A stretch of 59,973 nucleotides of DNA, taken from Patescibacteria group bacterium (GTDB taxonomy: Bacteria; Patescibacteriota; Saccharimonadia; Saccharimonadales; JAZKJC01). The stretch lies in assembly GCA_040384565.1 (NCBI GenBank), contig JAZKJC010000011.1, positions 1 to 59,973 of the forward strand, read 5' to 3'. The notes beneath the pieces are model-generated. The model made no database searches. It had not been told where the DNA came from and saw only the letters and a list, made by a program, of their open reading frames with translations. Each line of letters opens with the position of its first letter. Within the stretch, counting starts at the first letter, position 1. Shown here piece after piece: positions 6,716 through 53,992 of the stretch. Position numbers and translations under genes: made by a program.

Positions 6716-6825
6716 GAACGTTTACCATTTACCACTCACCGTTTTCAATGCGTTTACCTTGATCCGTTTTCCATGGTAAAAAGAAAACGGGAAACGTGTG
6801 GTGAACGGAAAACAGTAAACAGCTA
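6716..6825. repeat. ORF-less heptamer hairpin element (four-helix-cassette family)
   Basis: Contains GTGAACGGAAAACAGTAAA, identical to 17636-17654 and to the reverse complement of 26388-26406. Confidence 0.85.
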
Positions 6826-7326
6826 ACGGCTCCGGGGTTTATACTCGTAAAGCATCAGACCGTTGAGTTCTTTAACCGGCTTTTTGCCAGGGATTGCAAA
6901 TGCAAAACTAACTAGTTTGACAGGTTTGGTTATTTCTTGTTCAATTTTATTGTTCAGCTTTTCCATATATTGATTTAATAAAAATACATATATTCCATCT
7001 GTTACGGGCAACTTGTGGCGCCAGTAGTTACCCCAGTGAACAGTAATTAATTTGTGGTATTTCCAGTGTCTACCCTTGCTCCATATCACCAGCAAAGGGT
7101 TTAGCTCGTATCCGATTGACTTAATACCGCGCTCGGCCGCCGCCCGCAAAATGCGTCCATCACCGCTACCAAGCTCCAGCAACGTCTGCCCAGGCTTAAG
7201 ATCAAGCAAATCTAGTGCTTCTGGTGTCCTAGCACGTAATGTGGGTAGATATGGCGCCCCAAAAGCAATAACAAAGCTGAAAATCAGGATTGCTGATATG
7301 ACTATTATCCATAGGACTGCTGGCAT
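6823..7326 (-). CDS. membrane-anchored class I SAM-dependent methyltransferase (FAM173-like)
   Basis: N-terminal TM, GAPYLPT, LELGSGDGR, GYELNP. Confidence 0.85.
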   Translation of the reverse strand: MPAVLWIIVISAILIFSFVIAFGAPYLPTLRARTPEALDLLDLKPGQTLLELGSGDGRILRAAAERGIKSIGYELNPLLVIWSKGRHWKYHKLITVHWGNYWRHKLPVTDGIYVFLLNQYMEKLNNKIEQEITKPVKLVSFAFAIPGKKPVKELNGLMLYEYKPRSR

Positions 7327-7389: not shown

Positions 7390-7420
7390 CGTTATACGTA
7401 ATACGTTCTACGTTCTACGT
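7390..7420. repeat. heptamer tandem repeat (CGTTCTA-type) over the xseB stop
   Basis: CGTTATA CGTAATA CGTTCTA CGTTCTA CGT. Confidence 0.7.
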
Positions 7421-11589: not shown

Positions 11590-12840
11590 ATGACACAATC
11601 AATTGCCGTTTTGGGACGACAGCCCGCTCTAGGTATAGCCGAGCTGGAAAGCCTGTATGGAGCGGAAAAACTACACCCACTTGGCGATCAGGCCGCCCTA
11701 ATAGATATTGACCCAGCAGAAATATCTTTTAGCAGATTAGGCGGCACAATCAAACTTGCCCGGCTGGTAACCATAATTGACAGCACCGATTGGAAGCAAG
11801 TCGAGCAGCATCTGTCTGAAAGCGCAGCCAAACACAGCACTTTTTTGCCAGATGGCAAAATGAGCTTTGGGCTAAGTGTGTATGGGCTGGATGTGAGCCC
11901 TGCCCGCATTAATGCCACCGCTTTAAGCGTCAAAAAACTCATCAAAGCCACCGGACGTCCGGTGCGGGTAGTGCCCAACAAAACGCCAGACTTATCAAGC
12001 GCGCAAGTGCTGCATAATGGCCTGAATGGCGAGAGAGCCTGGGAATTATTATTTATCCGGCACGGTCAGCAAACATATATGGCCCAAACTACAAACGTAC
12101 AGGATATAACCGCCTACGCCGCCCGCGATCAAGCTCGCCCAAAGCGTGATGCCCGGGTCGGCATGCTGCCACCTAAGCTGGCACAAATCATTATCAACTT
12201 GGCTGTCGGCCAGGTTGAGGAGAACGAAGAACGGAGAACGGAGAATGGAGAAGTCGGAACTGTAGCTGTTCGTCATTCCTCATTCCTCGTTCCTCGTTCG
12301 TTGACAGTGCTTGATCCGTTTTGTGGGACGGGGGTTGTGCTGCAGGAGGCGCTGTTGATGGGGTACAAAACTTATGGTACTGACCTAGAACCCAGGATGG
12401 TCGAATACTCCAAGACAAATCTTGACTGGCTTTCTACCGTCTACCGTCTACCGTCTACCGTCTACAACCTTGAAGCCGCCGATGCAACCAATCACAAATG
12501 GGATCGTTTTGATACAATTGCCGCAGAAGCTTACCTGGGCCGTGCCTTTTCCGCCCTGCCCCGCCCTGAAATTCTGCGGGAAGTTATGAGTGATGTTAAT
12601 GCGATTATCAAAATGTTCCTGCAAAATGTCACCCGCCAAACCAGCCCGGGCTTTAGGATGTGCATTGCCGTTCCTGCCTGGAAGACTGCTCACAGCTTTG
12701 CACATCTGAAACTACTTGATAATCTGACAGATTTGGGGTATACTCGGGCGGTATTTACTCATGTGGCTAGTGCGGAGCTGATCTATCACAGACCAGAACA
12801 AATCGTCGCCCGTGAATTAGTAGTGCTGGTTCGAAAATGA
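11590..12840 (+). CDS. TRM11/TrmG10-like RNA methyltransferase carrying two heptamer-repeat segments
   Basis: RDQARPKRDARVGMLPPKLAQI, LDPFCGTGVVLQEA; start MTQSIA. Confidence 0.85.
   Translation: MTQSIAVLGRQPALGIAELESLYGAEKLHPLGDQAALIDIDPAEISFSRLGGTIKLARLVTIIDSTDWKQVEQHLSESAAKHSTFLPDGKMSFGLSVYGLDVSPARINATALSVKKLIKATGRPVRVVPNKTPDLSSAQVLHNGLNGERAWELLFIRHGQQTYMAQTTNVQDITAYAARDQARPKRDARVGMLPPKLAQIIINLAVGQVEENEERRTENGEVGTVAVRHSSFLVPRSLTVLDPFCGTGVVLQEALLMGYKTYGTDLEPRMVEYSKTNLDWLSTVYRLPSTVYNLEAADATNHKWDRFDTIAAEAYLGRAFSALPRPEILREVMSDVNAIIKMFLQNVTRQTSPGFRMCIAVPAWKTAHSFAHLKLLDNLTDLGYTRAVFTHVASAELIYHRPEQIVARELVVLVRK
12220..12300. repeat. in-frame inverted heptamer element
   Basis: (GAGAACG)-type x5 then (TTCCTCG)-type x4.5; encodes ENEERRTENGE...RHSSFLVPRS. 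Confidence 0.9.
12433..12465. repeat. in-frame heptamer tandem repeat (TCTACCG)x4+
   Basis: Four perfect units plus TCTAC; encodes STVYRLPSTVY. Confidence 0.95.
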
Positions 12841-17552: not shown

Positions 17553-17660
17553 CTGTTTACGGTTTACAATTTACCGTTCACTGTAGGTTTACCTTGAGCT
17601 GTTTACCATGGAAAACCGAAAAAGGAAAACGCAAAGTGAACGGAAAACAGTAAATAGCTA
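17553..17660. repeat. ORF-less heptamer hairpin element (four-helix-cassette family) at the pyrG stop
   Basis: 17625-17654 is an exact 30-nt reverse complement of 26388-26417. Confidence 0.88.
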
Positions 17661-19268
17661 ATGAGATTTGAGGGCGGCTGCAATAAAGCCACGGAACATA
17701 GGGTGTGGGCGGTTTGGGCGGGACTTGAATTCCGGATGGAACTGGCTGGCCAGGAAGAATGGATGATTGGTGCCTTCGATAATTTCTACAAGATTATTTT
17801 TGGTATTGATACCGCTGGCCCGTATTCCCCACTGCGCATACTGGTCACGGTAAGCATTGTTGCATTCGCCGCGGTGCCGATGACGCTCAATTGTCCGGGT
17901 ACTACCGTACACTTTGGCAGCCAGGCTGCCCTTTTCCAGCGCACAGTCGTAATCACCAAGTCTCATTGTGCCACCGGTCATATGCTTGTCAGCCTGGTCA
18001 GCCATTGTAGTGATAACTAAGTTTTTGCTGTCGGTTTGAAGTTCAAAGGTATTGGCGTCGGCTAGCCCGGCATTCCTGGCAGCTGCAATGACACCCATTT
18101 GCAAACCAAGACACAAGCCAAGATATGTAACGTTTTGCGTCAGAGCGTACTGTGCGGCCTTAATCTTGCCCTCTAGGCCACGCTGGCCAAATCCACCCGG
18201 CACAACGATACCGTCAAAAGCCCGTAATGTTGGGGCTATATCCTTGTCAGGAGCATCAAATTCGCTGGCATCAATCCAAGTAATATTTAAGACACATTCG
18301 CTGTGCCAAGCGGCAGCTTTGAGGGCTTCAAACACCGACATATAGGTGTCCGTATTGTCCATGTATTTGGCCACGAAAGCTATATTGAGCTTCCGCTCAT
18401 GTTTAGTGATGGCCAGCTTCACGACTTCACGCCAGGCTTTTAGGTCCGGTTTCTTGGCCTTCAAACCAAGGCGCTCTACCAGTACGTCAGCAATGCCGGT
18501 ATCCTCTAGTGTCAGGGGCACCTCATAGATAGTCTTGGCATTCGGGAGAGAGGCGATATGTGTACCGGGTACGCCGCTAAATAAACTAAGTTTGTTAATG
18601 GCGGCAGCGCTGGCCGGGTTTTCACTACGGGCAACTAGAATATCGGGCGCAATGCCAAGCCCGCGTAGCTCCCGGACAGAATTCTGGGCTGGTTTGGTTT
18701 TAGTCTCGTTGCTCGCACTGATATGTGGCAAATAAACGACGTGCACATAGGCGCAGTTGTCCAAGCCAACCTTAATGCCCATTTCGCGGATGGCTTCGAC
18801 AAAACTGAGGGATTCGTAATCGCCTACTGTGCCGCCGATTTCGACGATATGTACGTCAAAACCTTCACCGGCTTTCACAATCCAGTCCTGGATGGCTCCG
18901 GTAAGGTGCGGAATGATCTGCACGTCGTCACCGTCAAACTTGCCTGCCCGCTCATCCTGAATGAGCTTGAGCAATACCCGTCCTGCCATCAGACTACTTC
19001 GACTAGTCATTTCCTCATCAACAAAGCGTTCGTAGTGTCCGAGGTCGAGGTCAGTTTCGGCGCCGTCACGTGTGACAAAACATTCGCCGTGCTCACGCGG
19101 ATTTAGTAGCCCGGCATCAACATTAAGATAGGGATCGCACTTCTGCAGATTTACTTTAAGACCACGAGCTTTTAAGAGGTTGCCAATAGAAGCGGCAGTA
19201 ATGCCCTTGCCCAGTCCGGAAAGCACGCCACCTGTAACAAAAATATACTTAGTTTGGCGCTTCGCCAT
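17658..19268 (-). CDS. pyrG: CTP synthase
   Basis: TGGVLSGLGKG, DPYLNVD, GLCLG, ERHRHR, QFHPEF. Confidence 0.98.
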   Translation of the reverse strand: MAKRQTKYIFVTGGVLSGLGKGITAASIGNLLKARGLKVNLQKCDPYLNVDAGLLNPREHGECFVTRDGAETDLDLGHYERFVDEEMTSRSSLMAGRVLLKLIQDERAGKFDGDDVQIIPHLTGAIQDWIVKAGEGFDVHIVEIGGTVGDYESLSFVEAIREMGIKVGLDNCAYVHVVYLPHISASNETKTKPAQNSVRELRGLGIAPDILVARSENPASAAAINKLSLFSGVPGTHIASLPNAKTIYEVPLTLEDTGIADVLVERLGLKAKKPDLKAWREVVKLAITKHERKLNIAFVAKYMDNTDTYMSVFEALKAAAWHSECVLNITWIDASEFDAPDKDIAPTLRAFDGIVVPGGFGQRGLEGKIKAAQYALTQNVTYLGLCLGLQMGVIAAARNAGLADANTFELQTDSKNLVITTMADQADKHMTGGTMRLGDYDCALEKGSLAAKVYGSTRTIERHRHRGECNNAYRDQYAQWGIRASGINTKNNLVEIIEGTNHPFFLASQFHPEFKSRPNRPHPMFRGFIAAALKSH

Positions 19269-22927: not shown

Positions 22928-22958
22928 AATTACCAATTTACAATTTACAATTTTCAAA
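22928..22958. repeat. heptamer tandem repeat (CAATTTA-type)
   Basis: AATTACC AATTTAC AATTTAC AATTTTC AAA. Confidence 0.7.
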
Positions 22959-25290: not shown

Positions 25291-26370
25291 CTAAATATTT
25301 TGTTCCAGGAAAGCGATGATGAACGGGTCTAGGTTGCCGTCTAGAACGGCGTCGGGGTCGGAGGATTCGTGGCGCGTGCGGAGGTCTTTGACTTGTTTAT
25401 AGGGGTGCAGGACGTAGCTACGGATTTGATTGCCCCAGGCAGCTTGCTCGTTGGCGCCTTTTAGTTCGCGTAAATCCTCTGCGTGTTGCTCCAGCTTTAA
25501 TGCTGCCAATTTGGAACGGAGTATGGTCATGGCAGTTTCCCGGTTTTGCAACTGCGAACGCTCGTTTTGAATAGCTACGACAATCCCGGTTGGAATATGC
25601 GTAATGCGCACGGCTGAGTCAGTTGTATTGACGCTTTGACCACCATGCCCGCCGCTTCTGTAGACATCAATTTTTAAATCTTTTTCGTCAACTTCTACGT
25701 CTTCTGGCTTATCTATTTTGGGCATAATTTCTACTTTGGCAAAGCTTGTTTGGCGTAAGTTATCTGAGTTGAAAGGACTAAGACGCACCAAACGATGAAC
25801 ACCATGCTCGCCTTTTAGCTTGGCATATGCAAAAGTGCCGTTTATCTCTAACGTTACGCTTTTGAGTCCTGCTTCTTCGCCTGCCGACTGTTCAATGGTT
25901 GCAACTGTAAAGTTAGATTGTTCCGCATAACGGACATACATACGCAGGAGCATTTGCGCCCAATCCTGCGCATCAGTCCCGCCTGCACCGGCATGAATAC
26001 TAAGAATGGCATCGTGGTCATCATAAGGACCATTGAAAAGCAGCTCGGCTTTGCGCGTATCAAACTCTTTTTGGGCCGCGCTTAGCTGTTCGCTCAGATC
26101 ACTTTCTATGCTTGTATCATCCATTTGTAATAGTTCTTGGATATCTTTGACCTGCTGCTCAAGCTGCCGCCATGGCTTAATGCGCAGCTCTAGGGCTGAT
26201 TGTTGTTTCATCAAACTTTGAGCCCGGCTTTGGTCTGACCACAGGGCCGGATCGGCTGTTTGCTTCTGTAGCTCGGCTAAATTGGATTCAAGCTCGTCAA
26301 TACGCAAGTTGGTTAACGCAGCCCGCACCGCACTCGCCAGTTCGTTTGCCTGTTTTTGCATTTCTTGCAT
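25291..26370 (-). CDS. prfB: peptide chain release factor 2 (no programmed frameshift)
   Basis: SPF and GGQ motifs; continuous ORF; ATG at 26370 one nt after upstream stop. Confidence 0.96.
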   Translation of the reverse strand: MQEMQKQANELASAVRAALTNLRIDELESNLAELQKQTADPALWSDQSRAQSLMKQQSALELRIKPWRQLEQQVKDIQELLQMDDTSIESDLSEQLSAAQKEFDTRKAELLFNGPYDDHDAILSIHAGAGGTDAQDWAQMLLRMYVRYAEQSNFTVATIEQSAGEEAGLKSVTLEINGTFAYAKLKGEHGVHRLVRLSPFNSDNLRQTSFAKVEIMPKIDKPEDVEVDEKDLKIDVYRSGGHGGQSVNTTDSAVRITHIPTGIVVAIQNERSQLQNRETAMTILRSKLAALKLEQHAEDLRELKGANEQAAWGNQIRSYVLHPYKQVKDLRTRHESSDPDAVLDGNLDPFIIAFLEQNI

Positions 26371-26371
26371 A

Positions 26372-26785
26372 CTAATGTCGTTCACCGTTTACTGTTTTCC
26401 GTTCACTTTGCGTTTTCTGTTTTCCGTTTTCAGTGTTGTCACGCAGCGTATTAATAATTTTTTGTAGGGTCATCAAAATGTAATGGCATTCTTGCTTAAG
26501 CTCAATACAGTCTGCCTTGTTAGGTGCAAAGTCTTCTAGCAATATCAGCCAGTACTCAGATTCTGCTGCTTCTTTTTTGGCAATGAATATTTTGTTTCTG
26601 AAGTCTGTTTTTGATGCCGCATTATTAGCTTCAGCATAGTTCGCGCCAACACTATTAGCAGAACGTATCAGCTGATCAATAATTGGCCTTGTTACTATTG
26701 TGGCCTGAACGCTACCGCAAAACAATAATACTTTTTTAGAGAATGCAGCGGTTCTATCGCTGAGACTGTAAGGTAAATGGTTCAT
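26372..26785 (-). CDS. four-helix bundle protein (23S rRNA IVP / bAvd-like family)
   Basis: DQLIRSANSVGANYAEA...DFRNKIFIAKKEAAESEYWL signature. Confidence 0.92.
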   Translation of the reverse strand: MNHLPYSLSDRTAAFSKKVLLFCGSVQATIVTRPIIDQLIRSANSVGANYAEANNAASKTDFRNKIFIAKKEAAESEYWLILLEDFAPNKADCIELKQECHYILMTLQKIINTLRDNTENGKQKTQSERKTVNGERH

Positions 26786-26825
26786 AGTAAACGTATTGTA
26801 AACGGAAAACAGTGAACGGTAAACG
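26379..26825. mobile_element. putative cassette: four-helix-bundle ORF enclosed by 28-bp heptamer-built inverted repeats
   Basis: 26379-26406 and reverse complement of 26798-26825 match 25/28; mobility is inferred only. Confidence 0.6.
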
Positions 26826-26827
26826 AG

Positions 26828-28117
26828 TCAGCGTGTCCACAGAGTGCTGAGTATACCGGTCAGTTGCTGGCGCAGCTCTGGCGAGGCTGTGCCTAGAAAT
26901 CCCATACCCCAAGTAGGTGTGCTGAAGAATTCTTTTGTAATATCGGTCAGCTGCTCTTTGGTAATAGCTTTGATCCGTTCTGGAACAGCGTAGTAATCGT
27001 CAATGTAATCATCAAAGAAATAACGTCCACTATAGCCTGCCGCAGTACCAGAAACCGTCTGGCCACTGCGCTGAAACCGTCCCAGCAAATATTGTTGAGC
27101 CGCGGCAATATCCATATTTGTAACTTCCCCATTGCAGACAGCCTGAATTTCTTTGGCAATAATAGCAAACAATGCCGGTGCGTTGACTGGTGTAACTTGC
27201 GTACCAAACCACCAGTTTGTGGCAGATTTGGTTTGCAGGTAGTTTGAGCTCATGCCGTATACCAAGCCCTTTTCACGGGCTTCCCCCAAAATGCGTGAGT
27301 GTAATGTCTCCGTCAGCATGGTGTTTACTAAGCCCAAGGCATCGGCTTCGTCCTCGTTTAGACGGCGATTTATGAACGTGTCCAAATAAAAGTGCATATT
27401 CTCCACTGTACGGTTATGGATATACATAGGTTCTTTTAAGCCCTTGGGCCGTTCCACGGGCAGCGCAATCCGCGCACGGCCAGTTGGCAGCCCTATATTT
27501 TCTAAAAGTTCCACTATATGATCACGCCTGGGCTGGGTAATCTTGCCAGCAATTACAAAACGCATATTTTTGGTGAAGTGGGTTTTTTCGTAATGCGCGC
27601 GGATATCCTCTAGTTTGACGTTTATCATCCGTTTTATGCGCTCTTGGTCTGTCAAAACTTTGTAGCCGTAGGCTTGTCTTAGGGCTAAGCTTAAGTGACG
27701 AAAGTGATTGTTGGAGCGTCCGATCATTTCCTCTTTGACGTTGCCGTATTCTGCTTTATATTCGTCTTCCAAAAACAGCGGTTTACTTATAGCCGTGAGC
27801 AACAAACTAGCAATACGCTCCCATTCAAAATCCGCACACTCGGCTTCGTATGTTATATCGTAACTGCCAGTGCTGGCGTTGCAGTAAGCACCGTTTTTTT
27901 CAAATTCTGCTTGGAACGCCCGTGCCCTTGGTATCTGCTCGTTTGCTCCCAGCAGTAAGTGTTCCATAAGATGAGCCACTTCCCATTTATCTGGTGGAGT
28001 CAAAAAATCGCCTGCCCGAAAGTTAATTTCCAAACCCATAACACTGGCACCCGGTACATGTATAAATAAACCTTTGGCACCATTGTTTAAAGTAACCTCT
28101 TCTACGGCATGCTTCAT
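26828..28117 (-). CDS. M16 family zinc peptidase
   Basis: HLMEH (HxxEH), NAST, REKGLVY. Confidence 0.92.
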   Translation of the reverse strand: MKHAVEEVTLNNGAKGLFIHVPGASVMGLEINFRAGDFLTPPDKWEVAHLMEHLLLGANEQIPRARAFQAEFEKNGAYCNASTGSYDITYEAECADFEWERIASLLLTAISKPLFLEDEYKAEYGNVKEEMIGRSNNHFRHLSLALRQAYGYKVLTDQERIKRMINVKLEDIRAHYEKTHFTKNMRFVIAGKITQPRRDHIVELLENIGLPTGRARIALPVERPKGLKEPMYIHNRTVENMHFYLDTFINRRLNEDEADALGLVNTMLTETLHSRILGEAREKGLVYGMSSNYLQTKSATNWWFGTQVTPVNAPALFAIIAKEIQAVCNGEVTNMDIAAAQQYLLGRFQRSGQTVSGTAAGYSGRYFFDDYIDDYYAVPERIKAITKEQLTDITKEFFSTPTWGMGFLGTASPELRQQLTGILSTLWTR

Positions 28118-28121
28118 AAAG

Positions 28122-28253
28122 CTAAATCCGAAATTAGAAACTTGAAACTAGAAACAAATCCGAAATTAGAAACTTGAAAACCGGAATGTTTTGAGCTTTG
28201 AGTTTCAGGTTTCGAGTTTGTTTCTGATTTCGTGTTTCTGATTTCGTGCTTGG
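28122..28253. repeat. heptamer-period inverted-repeat hairpin (GAAATTA/TTTCGTG family)
   Basis: GAAATTA GAAACTT GAAACTA... mirrored by ...TTTCTGA TTTCGTG TTTCTGA TTTCGTG. Confidence 0.9.
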
Positions 28254-33690: not shown

Positions 33691-33702
33691 ATCTACAGTA
33701 TA

Positions 33703-33728
33703 CAGCTGACAGCTGACAGTTTACAGCT
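33703..33728. repeat. heptamer repeat (CAGCTGA-type) between nuclease stop and serS promoter
   Basis: CAGCTGA CAGCTGA CAGTTTA CAGCT. Confidence 0.75.
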
Positions 33729-47719: not shown

Positions 47720-47740
47720 ATTGTCCTATTATAGAGTTTA

Positions 47741-47794
47741 TAGTGGTTAGTGAATAGTGGTTAGTGAATAGTGGTTAGTGAATAGTGGTTAGTG
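47741..47794. repeat. 14-bp (2x7) tandem repeat TAGTGGT-TAGTGAA
   Basis: Nearly four perfect 14-mers between uppS and rseP. Confidence 0.93.
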
Positions 47795-47808
47795 AGATTT
47801 TAGAAGAA

Positions 47809-51705: not shown

Positions 51706-51778
51706 TCAACAGTCTACACCTGACAGTAAACTGACAAACAAAAGCTCACTGTTAACTGTCGACTGTTAACTGTAAACT
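51704..51778. repeat. heptamer-period hairpin (AGTCAAC/CTGTTAA family) between rpmE and prfA
   Basis: AGTCAAC AGTCTAC... mirrored by CTGTTAA CTGTCGA CTGTTAA CTGTAAA. Confidence 0.8.
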
Positions 51779-52840
51779 ATGCATATGGATCAGAAAGAAC
51801 AAGCACTACGAGCTGAATACGAGGAACTGCAAGCTAAACTGCAGAACCCCAGTATTTTTAGTGATCCGGGATATCCTAAACTCGCCAAGCGTCAGAAGGA
51901 GCTTGAAGAAACGCTTAGATTGTTTGGCGATGTTAGGCTATTAAATAAAGAGCTTAGTGAAGCCTCAGAACTGGCTCATGGCAATGATGAAATGGCTGAA
52001 CTAGCCAAAACTGAAGTTACTGACCTTGCAGCCAAGCTATCAGCTATCAGCTATCAGCTATCAGCACTTCTTACGCCAAAAGATCCCAATGATGAGCGGG
52101 ACGTTATCGTCGAGATCCGGGCTGGGGCCGGTGGCGATGAGGCCAGTTTGTTTGCGGGAGAGTTATACCGCATGTATGTACGCTGGACGGAAACTCATAG
52201 CTACAAAACCGAACTTATTAGCGAAAGCCCCTCGGAATCTGGCGGTTTTAAAGAAATTATTTTTGCCATCCGTGGCATTGACGCATATCGTAATTTGAAG
52301 TTTGAAGCCGGCGTCCACCGCGTCCAACGTGTCCCTGTTACCGAAAGCCAAGGACGAATACATACCAGCACAGTTACTGTAGCCGCCATGCCGGAAGCCG
52401 AGGAAACTGATATTGAAATTAAAGATTCAGATTTGCGCATAGATGTATTCCGCTCTGGCGGGCACGGTGGCCAATCTGTTAACACTACTGATTCTGCAGT
52501 CCGGATTACTCACCTGCCCTCTGGCCTGGTTGTAGCTAATCAGGATGAAAAGTCGCAGATCAAGAATAAAGCCAAAGCTATGAGCGTCTTGAGATCGCGT
52601 TTGCTACAAGTCAAACTGGACCAAGAAGCCAGCCGCTTAAGTGACGCACGCAAAAAACTGATCGGCACAGGTGACCGCTCAGAAAAAATCCGCACCTATA
52701 ACTTCCCCCAGGACCGCATTACCGACCACCGCATCGGCTACAGCCGCAGCAACATCCCCGCCGCCTTGAACGGCGAAATAGACGACTTAATAGAACAACT
52801 ACACACTGCCGAACACGAACTGATCAGTCAAGACAGCTGA
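51779..52840 (+). CDS. prfA: peptide chain release factor 1
   Basis: [33 protein letters not shown]. Confidence 0.97.
52035..52065. repeat. in-frame heptamer tandem repeat (AGCTATC)x4+ in prfA
   Basis: Four perfect units plus AGC; encodes LSAISYQLS. Confidence 0.95.
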
Positions 52841-53116: not shown

Positions 53117-53992
53117 TTGAGAGTTCAAGAATTCTTAAAATCATCAGAGCAGCGGTTGGCAGCGGCTGGGATTGCCACCGCGCGCTTAGATTGCCTGGTT
53201 CTACTTGAAGACGCCACAGGTAAAGATCGCTCCTGGCTGATTGCCCATCCAGAATACCTGTTACAAGGCCCGGCCTTGAACATATTGAATGCACAAGTTC
53301 AACGACGCGAGAAGCATGAGCCGCTGGCTTACGTCCGCGGCAAAAGCGAGTTCTACGGCCGTGAGTTTAAAGTCAGCAAAGACACCCTGGAACCACGCCC
53401 CGAAACCGAGACAATGATAGACCTTTTAAAAGAGTTAATTCACAAATCACAAAAACCCTCCCTGTTAAAGGACAGACCTTTAACAGATGGAGGAAATGTG
53501 AATTGGCATATTGTGGATGTGGGGTCGGGGTCGGGGTGTTTGGGGATTACGGCTAAGTTGGAGCTTCCAGGTGCAACAGTCCTCGCTACTGACATCAGCT
53601 CTAGTTGCATAAAAATTGCTAAGCAAAATGCAAAAACACTTGGAGCAGATGTTAATTTTTACCAAGGCGACCTTTTGCAGCCCCTACCGTCTACCGTCTA
53701 CCGTCTACCTACTACCCTGCTCGCCAACCTGCCCTACGTTCCAGACAGTCACACCATCAACCAGGCCGCCATGTTTGAGCCCAAAATCGCAATTTTTGGA
53801 GGCGAAGATGGCCTGGATTTATACCGACAGCTCTTTCGACAAATTGCAAAAATTTCGCAAAAGCCAGCGTATATATTTACTGAGTCCCTGCCATTTCAGC
53901 ATGAAGCTTTGGCCCAGATTGCGAAAAACGTTGGTTATAAGCAGATCTTAGCTGAAGATTTTATTCTGTGCTTTCAAAATTCTGGTAGCTAG
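53117..53992 (+). CDS. prmC: release factor glutamine methyltransferase
   Basis: HEPLAY, PRPETE, DVGSGSG, ANLPY, GGEDGL; TTG start. Confidence 0.93.
   Translation: MRVQEFLKSSEQRLAAAGIATARLDCLVLLEDATGKDRSWLIAHPEYLLQGPALNILNAQVQRREKHEPLAYVRGKSEFYGREFKVSKDTLEPRPETETMIDLLKELIHKSQKPSLLKDRPLTDGGNVNWHIVDVGSGSGCLGITAKLELPGATVLATDISSSCIKIAKQNAKTLGADVNFYQGDLLQPLPSTVYRLPTTLLANLPYVPDSHTINQAAMFEPKIAIFGGEDGLDLYRQLFRQIAKISQKPAYIFTESLPFQHEALAQIAKNVGYKQILAEDFILCFQNSGS
53457..53493. repeat. in-frame AAGG-N5-CCTT palindrome in prmC
   Basis: Perfect 10-bp stem CTGTTAAAGG-ACAGA-CCTTTAACAG; related CAAGG-CCCGG-CCTTG at 53264-53278. Confidence 0.75.
53684..53716. repeat. in-frame heptamer tandem repeat (CTACCGT)x3+ in prmC
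   Basis: Same unit as 12433-12465; encodes LPSTVYRLPTT. Confidence 0.93.

Follow-up and report, generated by a model that had tools for sequence, protein, structure and literature searches.

A four-helix-bundle gene bracketed by inverted heptamer repeats at an operon junction of a Saccharimonadales genome: a probable intervening-sequence-type cassette

This report concerns a 59,973-nt stretch of DNA (the window; contig JAZKJC010000011.1, positions 1 to 59,973, assembly GCA_040384565.1) from a Patescibacteria group bacterium of the order Saccharimonadales, and in it a 137-aa open reading frame (ORF) that encodes a four-helix-bundle protein of the S23p/23S_rRNA_IVP family (PF05635) and lies between the gene of an M16-family peptidase and prfB. 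The unit under study, called the cassette below, consists of the PF05635 gene and two inverted arms of about 4-8 degenerate heptamers each. It is probably a selfish element of the type found as intervening sequences (IVSs) in rRNA genes, here residing in the junction of a protein-coding operon and accompanied by ORF-less derivatives similar to miniature inverted-repeat transposable elements (MITEs). The reading is carried by the empty site in relatives, by heptamer arms found across the gene family and co-inherited with the protein, by ORF-less siblings in the same window, and by the co-occurrence of heptamer arrays and PF05635 genes among sampled genomes.

Results

The cassette between the M16 peptidase gene and prfB

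All three genes are read from the minus strand, and 457 nt lie between the M16 gene and prfB. The ORF list of the window gave prfB as 25291-26385; its start was placed at the ATG 26368-26370, because tblastn alignments to prfB of relatives begin at that methionine. A single nucleotide separates the TAG of the four-helix-bundle ORF from this start codon. The segments 26798-26825 and 26379-26406 are inverted complements at 25 of 28 positions (3 mismatches), a pairing for which 100 dinucleotide shuffles gave no match, and the extended arms (26378-26429 and 26775-26826) are 77% complementary over 52 nt. Period 7 was called in both arms by Tandem Repeats Finder (26407-26431 and 26798-26825). Taken in the direction of the genes, the 5′ arm sets in 1-2 nt past the M16 stop codon, the 3′ arm ends 7 nt from the prfB ATG, and the last 19 codons of the ORF lie in the 3′ arm. 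A first-pass annotation of the window had described this bracket of 7-nt units, the two edges of the element directly after the M16 stop and just before the prfB start, and the arm-encoded C-terminal tail; each of these points was borne out.

When a 471-nt stretch was folded as RNA, the arms were predicted to pair into a stem of some 45 bp at the termini, with the entire ORF inside it (z = -5.08, minimum free energy -128.8 kcal/mol); none of 100 shuffles folded as well, so that the IVS-like mRNA stem proposed in the same annotation stands as a prediction. An Rfam scan of the window yielded neither rRNA nor any other family at gathering score, and one chance-level match (E 0.81).

For the comparison of the insertion site, 40 relatives of the same order, each of a different family, were searched with the M16 protein, and 29 loci were fetched. 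prfB follows the M16 gene in 23 of these, and in 19 of the 23 the spacer measures 0-100 nt (17 and 36 nt in the two closest relatives). An unrelated insert of 440-851 nt was found in three of the 23, and in one genome (G001) the spacer holds a 184-nt ORF-less heptamer hairpin of another family. No four-helix-bundle gene was found at the M16|prfB junction in the relatives' fetched loci. Since 19 of the 23 relatives that keep the gene order have an empty site, the cassette is an insertion and is not fixed across the clade; by this comparison, it entered a short M16|prfB spacer within the lineage that led to this genome.

Heptamer arms across the gene family

The genome of the window (G000; other G numbers denote comparison genomes) holds nine PF05635 loci (10 matches), one of them frameshifted at a contig end and one split by an insertion sequence (IS). 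Their flanks carry heptamer-built inverted repeats, each locus with a heptamer of its own. To score the arms, the upstream flank of each locus was matched in inverted orientation and without gaps to its downstream flank, and the best match was taken; all mismatched cross-locus flank pairs served as control. Six of the nine loci lay above the 95th percentile of the mismatched pairs, and a seventh did so if the IS insertion was allowed for. In the order set (nine own loci and 25 from relatives) this percentile was exceeded by 23 of 34 loci, with 11 below the threshold and 13 also above the 99th percentile, and period 7 ranked top in 55 of 68 flanks. The corresponding values were 23 of 29 loci and 44 of 58 flanks (plus 3 ties) in the phylum set, for which 30 loci were fetched and one was skipped for length, and 9 of 10 loci and 16 of 20 flanks in a set of plasmids from outside the candidate phyla radiation (CPR). 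For subfamily B, to which the 137-aa protein belongs, period 7 was top in 119 of 150 flanks of 75 loci. Strong enrichment of heptamer inverted-repeat flanks around four-helix-bundle genes, the test set beforehand in the first-pass annotation, was thus seen in this genome, the order, the phylum and the non-CPR plasmids. Cassette arms count a median of 4.5 heptamers, with a mode of 5.

The plasmid set was obtained by tblastn with one paralogue of this genome and comprises Anabaena, Nostoc, Pseudanabaena, Calothrix, Geminocystis, Picosynechococcus, Stanieria, Riemerella, Gemmatirosa and Azospirillum. The stem of the Azospirillum locus is built of GAGGACG/GATGACA units; its flanks, recognised by eye, are presumably 23S rRNA, and we hence take this cassette to be a classical IVS. 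By these comparisons, the same packaging appears in Patescibacteria, Cyanobacteriota, Bacteroidota, Gemmatimonadota and one 23S rRNA IVS.

The family splits into two sequence types, A (NIAEG motif) and B (GANYAEANNA). When arms were compared between loci, a likeness score of at least 12 was reached by 109 of 500 sampled B-B pairs, 17 of 500 A-A pairs and 6 of 500 A-B pairs. In this comparison arm sequence tracks protein lineage, and arms and protein are inherited together. PF05635 is distributed patchily: at the level of the order 17 of 41 genomes have it, and at that of the phylum 158 of 301, with up to 15 copies in genomes of about 1 Mb; these two tallies, like one of 38/41, include the genomes G032 and G193, on which no other claim rests.

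Some further properties of plasmid cassettes and arms were recorded. On Anabaena, Pseudanabaena and Picosynechococcus plasmids (L098, L101, L105), four-helix-bundle cassettes lie within CRISPR-cas operons (cas6|cas4, cas10|cmr3), and cyanobacterial plasmid cassettes were also found between ribonucleotide reductase genes. On the Pseudanabaena galeata plasmid the gene is preceded by over 15 tandem AAAAGCT units and followed, on the same strand, by some 12 units of AAAAGCC. Stop codons in all three frames were considered as a reason for the period of 7 and set aside, as they largely follow from the periodicity itself; such stops occurred in 18 of 42 subfamily-A 5′ arms against 14% of shuffles, and in 14 of 63 subfamily-B 5′ arms against 20%.

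ORF-less siblings of the cassette

Positions 17625-17654 are the exact reverse complement of 26388-26417 (30 nt), and positions 6802-6820 that of 26387-26405 (19 nt), in agreement with the matches first reported. Both belong to hairpins of about 100 nt that hold no ORF. As judged by eye on the plus strand, these are colinear with the cassette's 5′ arm, ATG and 3′ arm, and the tail frame is kept. Loss of the part coding for the four-helix bundle by internal deletion would give this arrangement, and the suggested relation between an ORF-bearing and an ORF-less form holds at this level. Because the two hairpins are related to each other, they are counted as one event. For the strand of the flanking genes, the folding z-scores are -4.2 (17560-17655) and -3.3 (6720-6830). 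Of the two sites named for the siblings, the pyrG stop was confirmed by the CTP_synth_N match of that gene, and the methyltransferase stop was not, the 167-aa ORF concerned having a sub-threshold match alone (Table 1). At least six dispersed arrays of this genome belong to the family of the cassette.

Another ORF-less heptamer hairpin, of a different family, occupies the neighbouring junction of the same operon (136 nt; arms 28129-28165 and 28210-28246, loop of 44 nt; z -6.7 / -8.0).

Heptamer arrays in this and other genomes

With a threshold of at least 17 matches in 21 positions, 107 period-7 arrays were found in this genome, where each of the other periods between 4 and 12 gave 0-9; heptamer arrays as such are therefore not special to the element, a correction to the first-pass annotation. 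Only 38% of the array bases fall in naive ORFs, against 87% of the genome. Of the 97 intergenic arrays, 78 lie at co-directional, 17 at divergent and 2 at convergent junctions, and thus in effect always upstream of a gene start, where the 1030 junctions of the genome comprise 739 co-directional, 141 divergent and 150 convergent ones. With two of 97 at convergent junctions, the arrays are not terminators; the arms, moreover, are A+T-rich heptamers without a T run and do not qualify as intrinsic terminators.

Ten other genomes, chosen for few contigs, were sampled, and period-7 arrays were counted per 200 kb; other periods gave 0-5 arrays. Among genomes without PF05635, no arrays were found in G003, G103, G171 and G301, none in G286, of which only 13 kb was sampled, and 5 in 374 kb of G001, all of them ORF-less hairpins of one family. 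The counts for genomes with PF05635 matches were 16 (G043, five matches), 161 (G099, seven), 26 (G063, five), 58 (G091, six), 2 (G256, two) and 15 (G000, 10 matches at nine loci). A profile search with the own subfamily gave no match in G001, G003, G103, G171 or G301. As the sampled genomes are few and related, the co-occurrence of arrays and gene is treated as a strong lead and not as a statistic.

Several array-rich places deserve mention in their own right. The 161 arrays of G099 (C1:1-200000), a 0.8-Mb genome with seven PF05635 matches, belong to many heptamer families set back to back. In G001 at least five ORF-less hairpins of about 120 nt form one family (CATTTNN) and share a loop that occurs in both orientations; heptamers of the CATTTNN type also flank a sugar transferase|glycosyltransferase cassette in G000 and G031. 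On contig C2 of the present genome (C2:1110-1583 and C2:3271-4420), one heptamer family flanks rplQ and another the rpsM-rpsK pair, so that successive ribosomal-protein operon junctions carry matching arrays in inverted orientation.

The four-helix-bundle protein

PF05635 (23S_rRNA_IVP) is the sole Pfam match of the 137-aa ORF (E 1.2e-14, 54.8 bits, cut-off 33.8), which also matches TIGR02436 ('four helix bundle protein'; E 1.1e-21, 77.1 bits, cut-off 24). At E<=1e-5, 513 homologues were found, and 22 columns are invariant across 42 homologues. An AlphaFold2 model based on an alignment of 42 homologues (predicted local distance difference test, pLDDT, 86.9) has helices at residues 8-25, 32-54, 59-86 and 90-119, with residues 8-119 forming the core. 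The tail ENGKQKTQSERKTVNGERH (residues 119-137), which is encoded by the 3′ arm, is predicted to be disordered (pLDDT <50); tails of homologues are heptamer-coded too (e.g., TVNGER, TVNSKR, TENGKR). Proteins of the own subfamily are mostly basic, with a median isoelectric point of 9.2 and values above 8 in 75 of 85.

The best structures retrieved with Foldseek were BT_0352 (2RLD; 31% identity, template modelling (TM) score 0.84 normalised to target) and Xcc0516 (2GSC), followed by Avd proteins of diversity-generating retroelements (DGRs; 8UB7, 8UBE, 4DWL) at 11-12% identity and TM scores of 0.76-0.79 normalised to target. The alignment profile matches 2RLD at E 4.2e-20. Both S23p/IVP structures, solved in 2006-2007, contain five chains each, from which we infer that the protein probably forms a homopentameric ring. 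A pentamer of the family is attributed to Lin 2006 in PMC4990558, and in a 2024 preprint the S23p/IVP domain is still called 'functionally uncharacterized' (10.1101/2024.02.27.582315).

Junctions occupied by cassettes

Cassettes lie mostly in the spacers of housekeeping operons and mostly in the orientation of their neighbours. Around the closest homologues (own subfamily, representative genomes), neither M16 nor prfB was found within 2.5 kb in any of 80 loci; 72 of the subfamily cassettes at these loci had two called neighbours, and 51 of the 72 were co-oriented with both. The 80 loci represent 55 junction types, a rough count that depends on naive ORF calls. At the level of the order, cassettes occupy dnaN|recF, sugar transferase|glycosyltransferase, rpsR|efp, grpE|dnaK, dnaK|dnaJ, frr|uppS and pheS|pheT, with neighbours named by eye from translated ends. 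The own protein falls in a clade of eight rows with an approximate likelihood-ratio (SH-aLRT) support of 96, of which the seven labelled rows span at least five junction types, a pattern that fits occasional jumps.

Two cassettes on contig C23 of this genome have additional sequence within their bounds. In the one at dnaN|recF, the 5′ arm and the gene are set apart by a distinct palindrome, GC-rich and some 150 nt long. At C23:62086-63614 a MULE/Mutator-type transposase gene (62322-63155, minus strand) divides an own-subfamily gene into an N-terminal half (62125-62367) and a C-terminal half (63377-63586), and arms of a TTTTCAA family still bracket the whole.

Features of the window

The coordinates of the cassette, its host genes and the ORF-less hairpins are collected in Table 1. 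Period-7 arrays of other families were also seen in the window at 7390-7420, 12219-12299, 12433-12465, 22934-22957, 33702-33728, 51748-51778, 52035-52065 and 53684-53716, and an exact array of four 14-nt units at 47740-47795.

Table 1. Coordinates, in the window, of the cassette, neighbouring genes and related hairpins (z, folding z-score)
Feature	Coordinates	Strand	Remarks
M16-family peptidase gene, upstream host gene	26828-28117	-	Pfam Peptidase_M16 + M16_C; stop codon 26828-26830
5′ arm (sense of genes)	26775-26826	-	degenerate heptamers CGTTTAC, CGTTCAC, TGTTTTC; holds the ATG of the ORF
Four-helix-bundle gene, 137 aa, S23p / 23S_rRNA_IVP family	26372-26785	-	ATG 26783-26785; TAG 26372-26374
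3′ arm	26378-26432	-	heptamers GAAAACG, GTAAACG, GTGAACG; within the last 19 codons of the ORF
prfB (peptide chain release factor), downstream host gene	25291-26370	-	Pfam PCRF + RF-1
ORF-less sibling hairpin	17560-17655	.	CCATGG centre; directly after the pyrG stop (17658); 30-nt match; z -4.2 / -3.3
pyrG	17658-19268		CTP_synth_N, E 2.9e-106
Second ORF-less sibling hairpin	6720-6830	.	CCATGG centre; at the stop of the 167-aa ORF; 19-nt match; z -3.3 / -2.0
167-aa ORF	6823-7326		sub-threshold methyltransferase-like match (CMAS 22.8 bits, cut-off 27)
ORF-less heptamer hairpin, other family (GAAATYY / GAAACTN)	28122-28248	.	between secA and the M16 gene

Discussion

Proposed mechanism

As an IVS-type element in an operon junction, the cassette would be transcribed by read-through of the host operon, and its arms would pair in the transcript, loop out the ORF and bring the M16 stop beside the prfB start. 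The stem is a putative substrate of host RNase III, by analogy with rRNA IVSs, for which cutting by this enzyme is shown experimentally (PMC4990558), and cleavage here would limit the harm to the host genes; a gene for RNase III was found in this genome. As the ORF crosses the 3′ arm, with a single nucleotide between its stop and the prfB ATG, translating ribosomes would unwind the stem and might pass on to prfB. The hairpins without an ORF would be MITE-like derivatives that arose by internal deletion. More speculatively, the protein, probably a pentameric ring, may bind the tandem heptamers of its own arms and perhaps those of the ORF-less copies, and such binding would have a role in spread, in maintenance or in autoregulation. 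Catalysis of the insertion would be supplied by the host or by another source outside the cassette.

A wider reading is put forward tentatively, as a possibility that we do not favour. The PF05635 proteins may be the missing partners of heptamer repeats, each ring reading some five units of its own heptamer family on RNA or DNA in single-stranded form. Gene and repeats would then form a self-propagating system of the REPIN/RAYT kind that manages without a transposase, leaves hairpins at gene starts and becomes a classical IVS when it lands in rRNA.

Evidence against the cassette reading and alternative explanations

A number of observations weigh against the interpretation as a mobile, IVS-type cassette. 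Regarding the bracket itself, the arrays of the Pseudanabaena galeata plasmid (L101) are direct and not inverted, and the arms of two orthologous dnaN|recF cassettes (G000 C23:51599-51955 and L054) have a period of 8, with TAGNNNNN units. Stem mismatches show no excess of G.U over A.C (102 vs 85, p = 0.24), so that a structure at the RNA level is not favoured over one at the DNA level. As to mobility, junction type follows clades closely (48 states, 51 changes) in a maximum-likelihood tree built quickly from 85 proteins, and most cassettes must therefore be old and vertically inherited, and jumps rare. No target-site duplication is visible, CT and AC standing directly outside the arms, with relatives too diverged for exact boundaries, and no catalytic domain for DNA breakage and joining was found in the cassette with Pfam. 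The public read runs listed were all of DNA, and in the two that contain the locus no joint skipping the cassette, i.e., a polymorphic empty site, was present; these runs gave the source contig and identical low-depth pieces and are uninformative either way on polymorphism. The link between arrays and gene rests on 11 non-independent genomes, of which 200-374 kb each were covered and which were selected for few contigs, and G001, a genome 99% complete, holds hairpins without a detectable four-helix-bundle gene. Finally, most dispersed arrays of the present genome do not match a resident cassette best: when the 122 arrays outside the cassette regions were compared with the nine own cassettes and 54 foreign ones as decoys, an own cassette matched best in 40 cases and a decoy in 72, with 10 ties. 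At a score of at least 16, own cassettes led with 21 arrays against 10 for the decoys, about 12-fold per cassette. Taken together, these counts make the link between arrays and resident cassettes real but partial.

Part of the evidence would also suit a host regulon acting after transcription, in which PF05635 paralogues bind heptamer operators in 5′ untranslated regions and spacers, control the downstream genes and regulate themselves. The near-absence of intergenic arrays from convergent junctions (2, against 78 co-directional and 17 divergent) is what such operators would give, and several paralogues with a heptamer family each, a conserved protein, the retention of up to 15 copies in genomes of about 1 Mb, and the unknown TAACTGA binder proposed by MacGregor 2015 (PMC4679880) point the same way. 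A regulon would hardly be so patchy, being found in 17/41 genomes of the order and 158/301 of the phylum, or leave empty sites in close relatives, and it does not account for copies inside rRNA genes (Azospirillum; PMC4990558), for the two broken copies among nine in this genome (frameshift, IS), for the hairpins of the gene-less G001, or for the occupation of unrelated junctions in different lineages; we therefore judge it unlikely. The same hairpins of G001 suit a further alternative, in which heptamer palindromes are independent repeats comparable to repetitive extragenic palindromic (REP) sequences or to the short tandemly repeated repeats (STRRs) of Cyanobacteria, with four-helix-bundle genes landing, or being kept, in their loops secondarily and neither making nor moving them. 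Arrays do outnumber genes (122 outside nine cassette regions in G000; 161 in 200 kb with seven genes in G099), mostly match no own cassette best, and flank ordinary genes such as rplQ and rpsM-rpsK. Four gene-less genomes have 0 arrays in 200 kb each, however; arm family tracks protein subfamily across junctions; the two ORF-less siblings, counted as one event, keep the ATG and tail frame of the cassette as a deletion derivative would; and the bracket recurs in other phyla and at rRNA sites, where the cassette flanks alone were inspected. An origin from hairpins first is on this balance distinctly improbable.

Tandem repeats can also arise by neutral slippage, and the heptamer copy number in Coxiella varies among strains (PMC4990558), so that simple-sequence repeats or intrinsic terminators might flank a small gene by chance. 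The arm pair, with 0 matches in 100 shuffles, the 107 period-7 arrays against 0-9 of other periods, the higher scores of cognate than of mismatched arms in three independent sets, the rarity of arrays at the convergent junctions where terminators are expected (2/97) and the lack of an Rfam family match leave this explanation very little room. Least credible of all is that the gene encodes an Avd accessory protein of a DGR, with the repeats related to a retroelement. The likeness to Avd noted in the first-pass annotation stands for the fold (TM 0.76-0.79 to target, 11-12% identity), and the search for a reverse transcriptase that it had called for found one in this genome, on another contig (C10) and unlinked to the PF05635 loci. 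A DGR partnership fails, in that this enzyme is accompanied by a bAvd-like gene of its own and by repeats resembling variable and template repeats (VR/TR). No reverse transcriptase adjoins any of the nine PF05635 loci (0/9), the one on C10 being the only one of the genome, and three complete genomes rich in heptamers, G099, G091 and G043, yielded none. The DGR-like locus itself (C10:71259-75016) consists of a reverse transcriptase gene broken by an assembly gap (PF00078, E 5e-10), an oppositely oriented bAvd-like ORF (PF22296, 33.2 bits, cut-off 40) and two upstream ORFs that end in similar Asn-rich peptides as a VR/TR-like pair.

Relation to known systems

The 23S rRNA IVSs of Leptospira, Coxiella, Brucella, Xanthomonas and other bacteria share with the cassette the PF05635 protein and terminal inverted repeats that form a long stem around the ORF. 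In Coxiella the IVS has heptameric GACAGAT repeats, in 2-3 strain-variable copies beside the S23p start, much as heptamers adjoin the start in the cassette, and a 28-bp terminal stem that is excised by RNase III (PMC4990558). The differences lie in the site, which is helix 25 or 45 of 23S rRNA for the IVS and the spacer of two protein-coding operon genes for the cassette; in the ORF, which in the cassette is conserved and reads through the 3′ arm to the start of the next gene; and in the ORF-less hairpin siblings that the cassette has at other junctions. Cleavage of the stem by RNase III is reported for the IVS (PMC4990558); the stem of the cassette is a putative substrate in a host that has the enzyme's gene.

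In the MITE comparison, terminal inverted repeats, short ORF-less copies colinear with the ends of a long copy and intergenic insertion are shared, whereas the long copy here has no transposase and the arms vary from cassette to cassette instead of forming one conserved terminal repeat. REPIN/RAYT systems, i.e., REP hairpin doublets and their REP-associated tyrosine transposases, combine a gene flanked by inverted hairpin repeats, dispersed copies without the gene, repeats that track the gene lineage and mostly vertical inheritance with occasional new sites. The cassette resembles them in that its gene lies between inverted copies of a repeat dispersed in the genome, which holds for its own family but not for every array family of the genome. 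It differs in encoding a four-helix bundle of about 120 aa without the HUH/Y1 nuclease motif of IS200/IS605-like transposases, and in having tandem heptamers in place of a fixed REP, with most dispersed arrays not matched best by a resident cassette. Avd is a four-helix bundle of similar size and acts as the pentameric nucleic-acid-binding partner in the DGR ribonucleoprotein; the cassette protein is only 11-12% identical to it and has no linked reverse transcriptase, template repeat or variable repeat.

Cyanobacterial STRRs are short tandemly repeated heptamers. With these and with TAACTGA repeats the arrays described here share tandem 7-nt units, an intergenic location and many copies per genome; the published repeats are direct and are not linked in those reports to S23p/four-helix-bundle genes, whereas the cassette arrays are inverted pairs around a gene and co-occur with that gene per genome. 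TAACTGA repeats of Beggiatoaceae, Cyanobacteria and Bacteroidetes are heptamers that often lie just 5′ of start codons and are patchy across phyla, and a binder was proposed for them in this position; in the main text of that article the terms 'intervening', 'helix bundle' and 'S23' occur 0 times (PMC4679880).

The suggestion of an undescribed system holds in part. Already known are IVSs with S23p ORFs, their stem and its excision by RNase III, heptamer repeats as a separate phenomenon, and heptamers in one IVS, that of Coxiella (PMC4990558). In the open texts searched, with subscription journals and supplements outside reach, no link of non-rRNA S23p/four-helix-bundle genes to heptamer inverted repeats was found, nor a description of the family-wide bracket, of residence at mRNA operon junctions, of ORF-less derivatives or of the genome-level link to arrays, and to that extent the generalisation was not found reported.

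Implications

Intervening sequences in rRNA and heptamer repeats in Cyanobacteria are two old puzzles. If the packaging is general, the IVS would be one of the places where a much wider class of cassettes lands, most of which live between operon genes. Reported links of the family to other systems would then call for re-examination: the listing of '23S rRNA IVP' among CRISPR-linked domains (PMC10910872), for example, may reflect no more than insertion at junctions such as cas6|cas4 and cas10|cmr3, and binding of a protein to its own arms together with cutting of the stem by RNase III would be a concrete and cheap hypothesis by which both puzzles become testable. A true partnership of PF05635 proteins and heptamers would explain the purpose of the IVS protein as well as the origin of heptamer arrays. 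For the annotation of Patescibacteria, the finding means that housekeeping operons are interrupted by as many as 15 cassettes per genome and 161 arrays per 200 kb.

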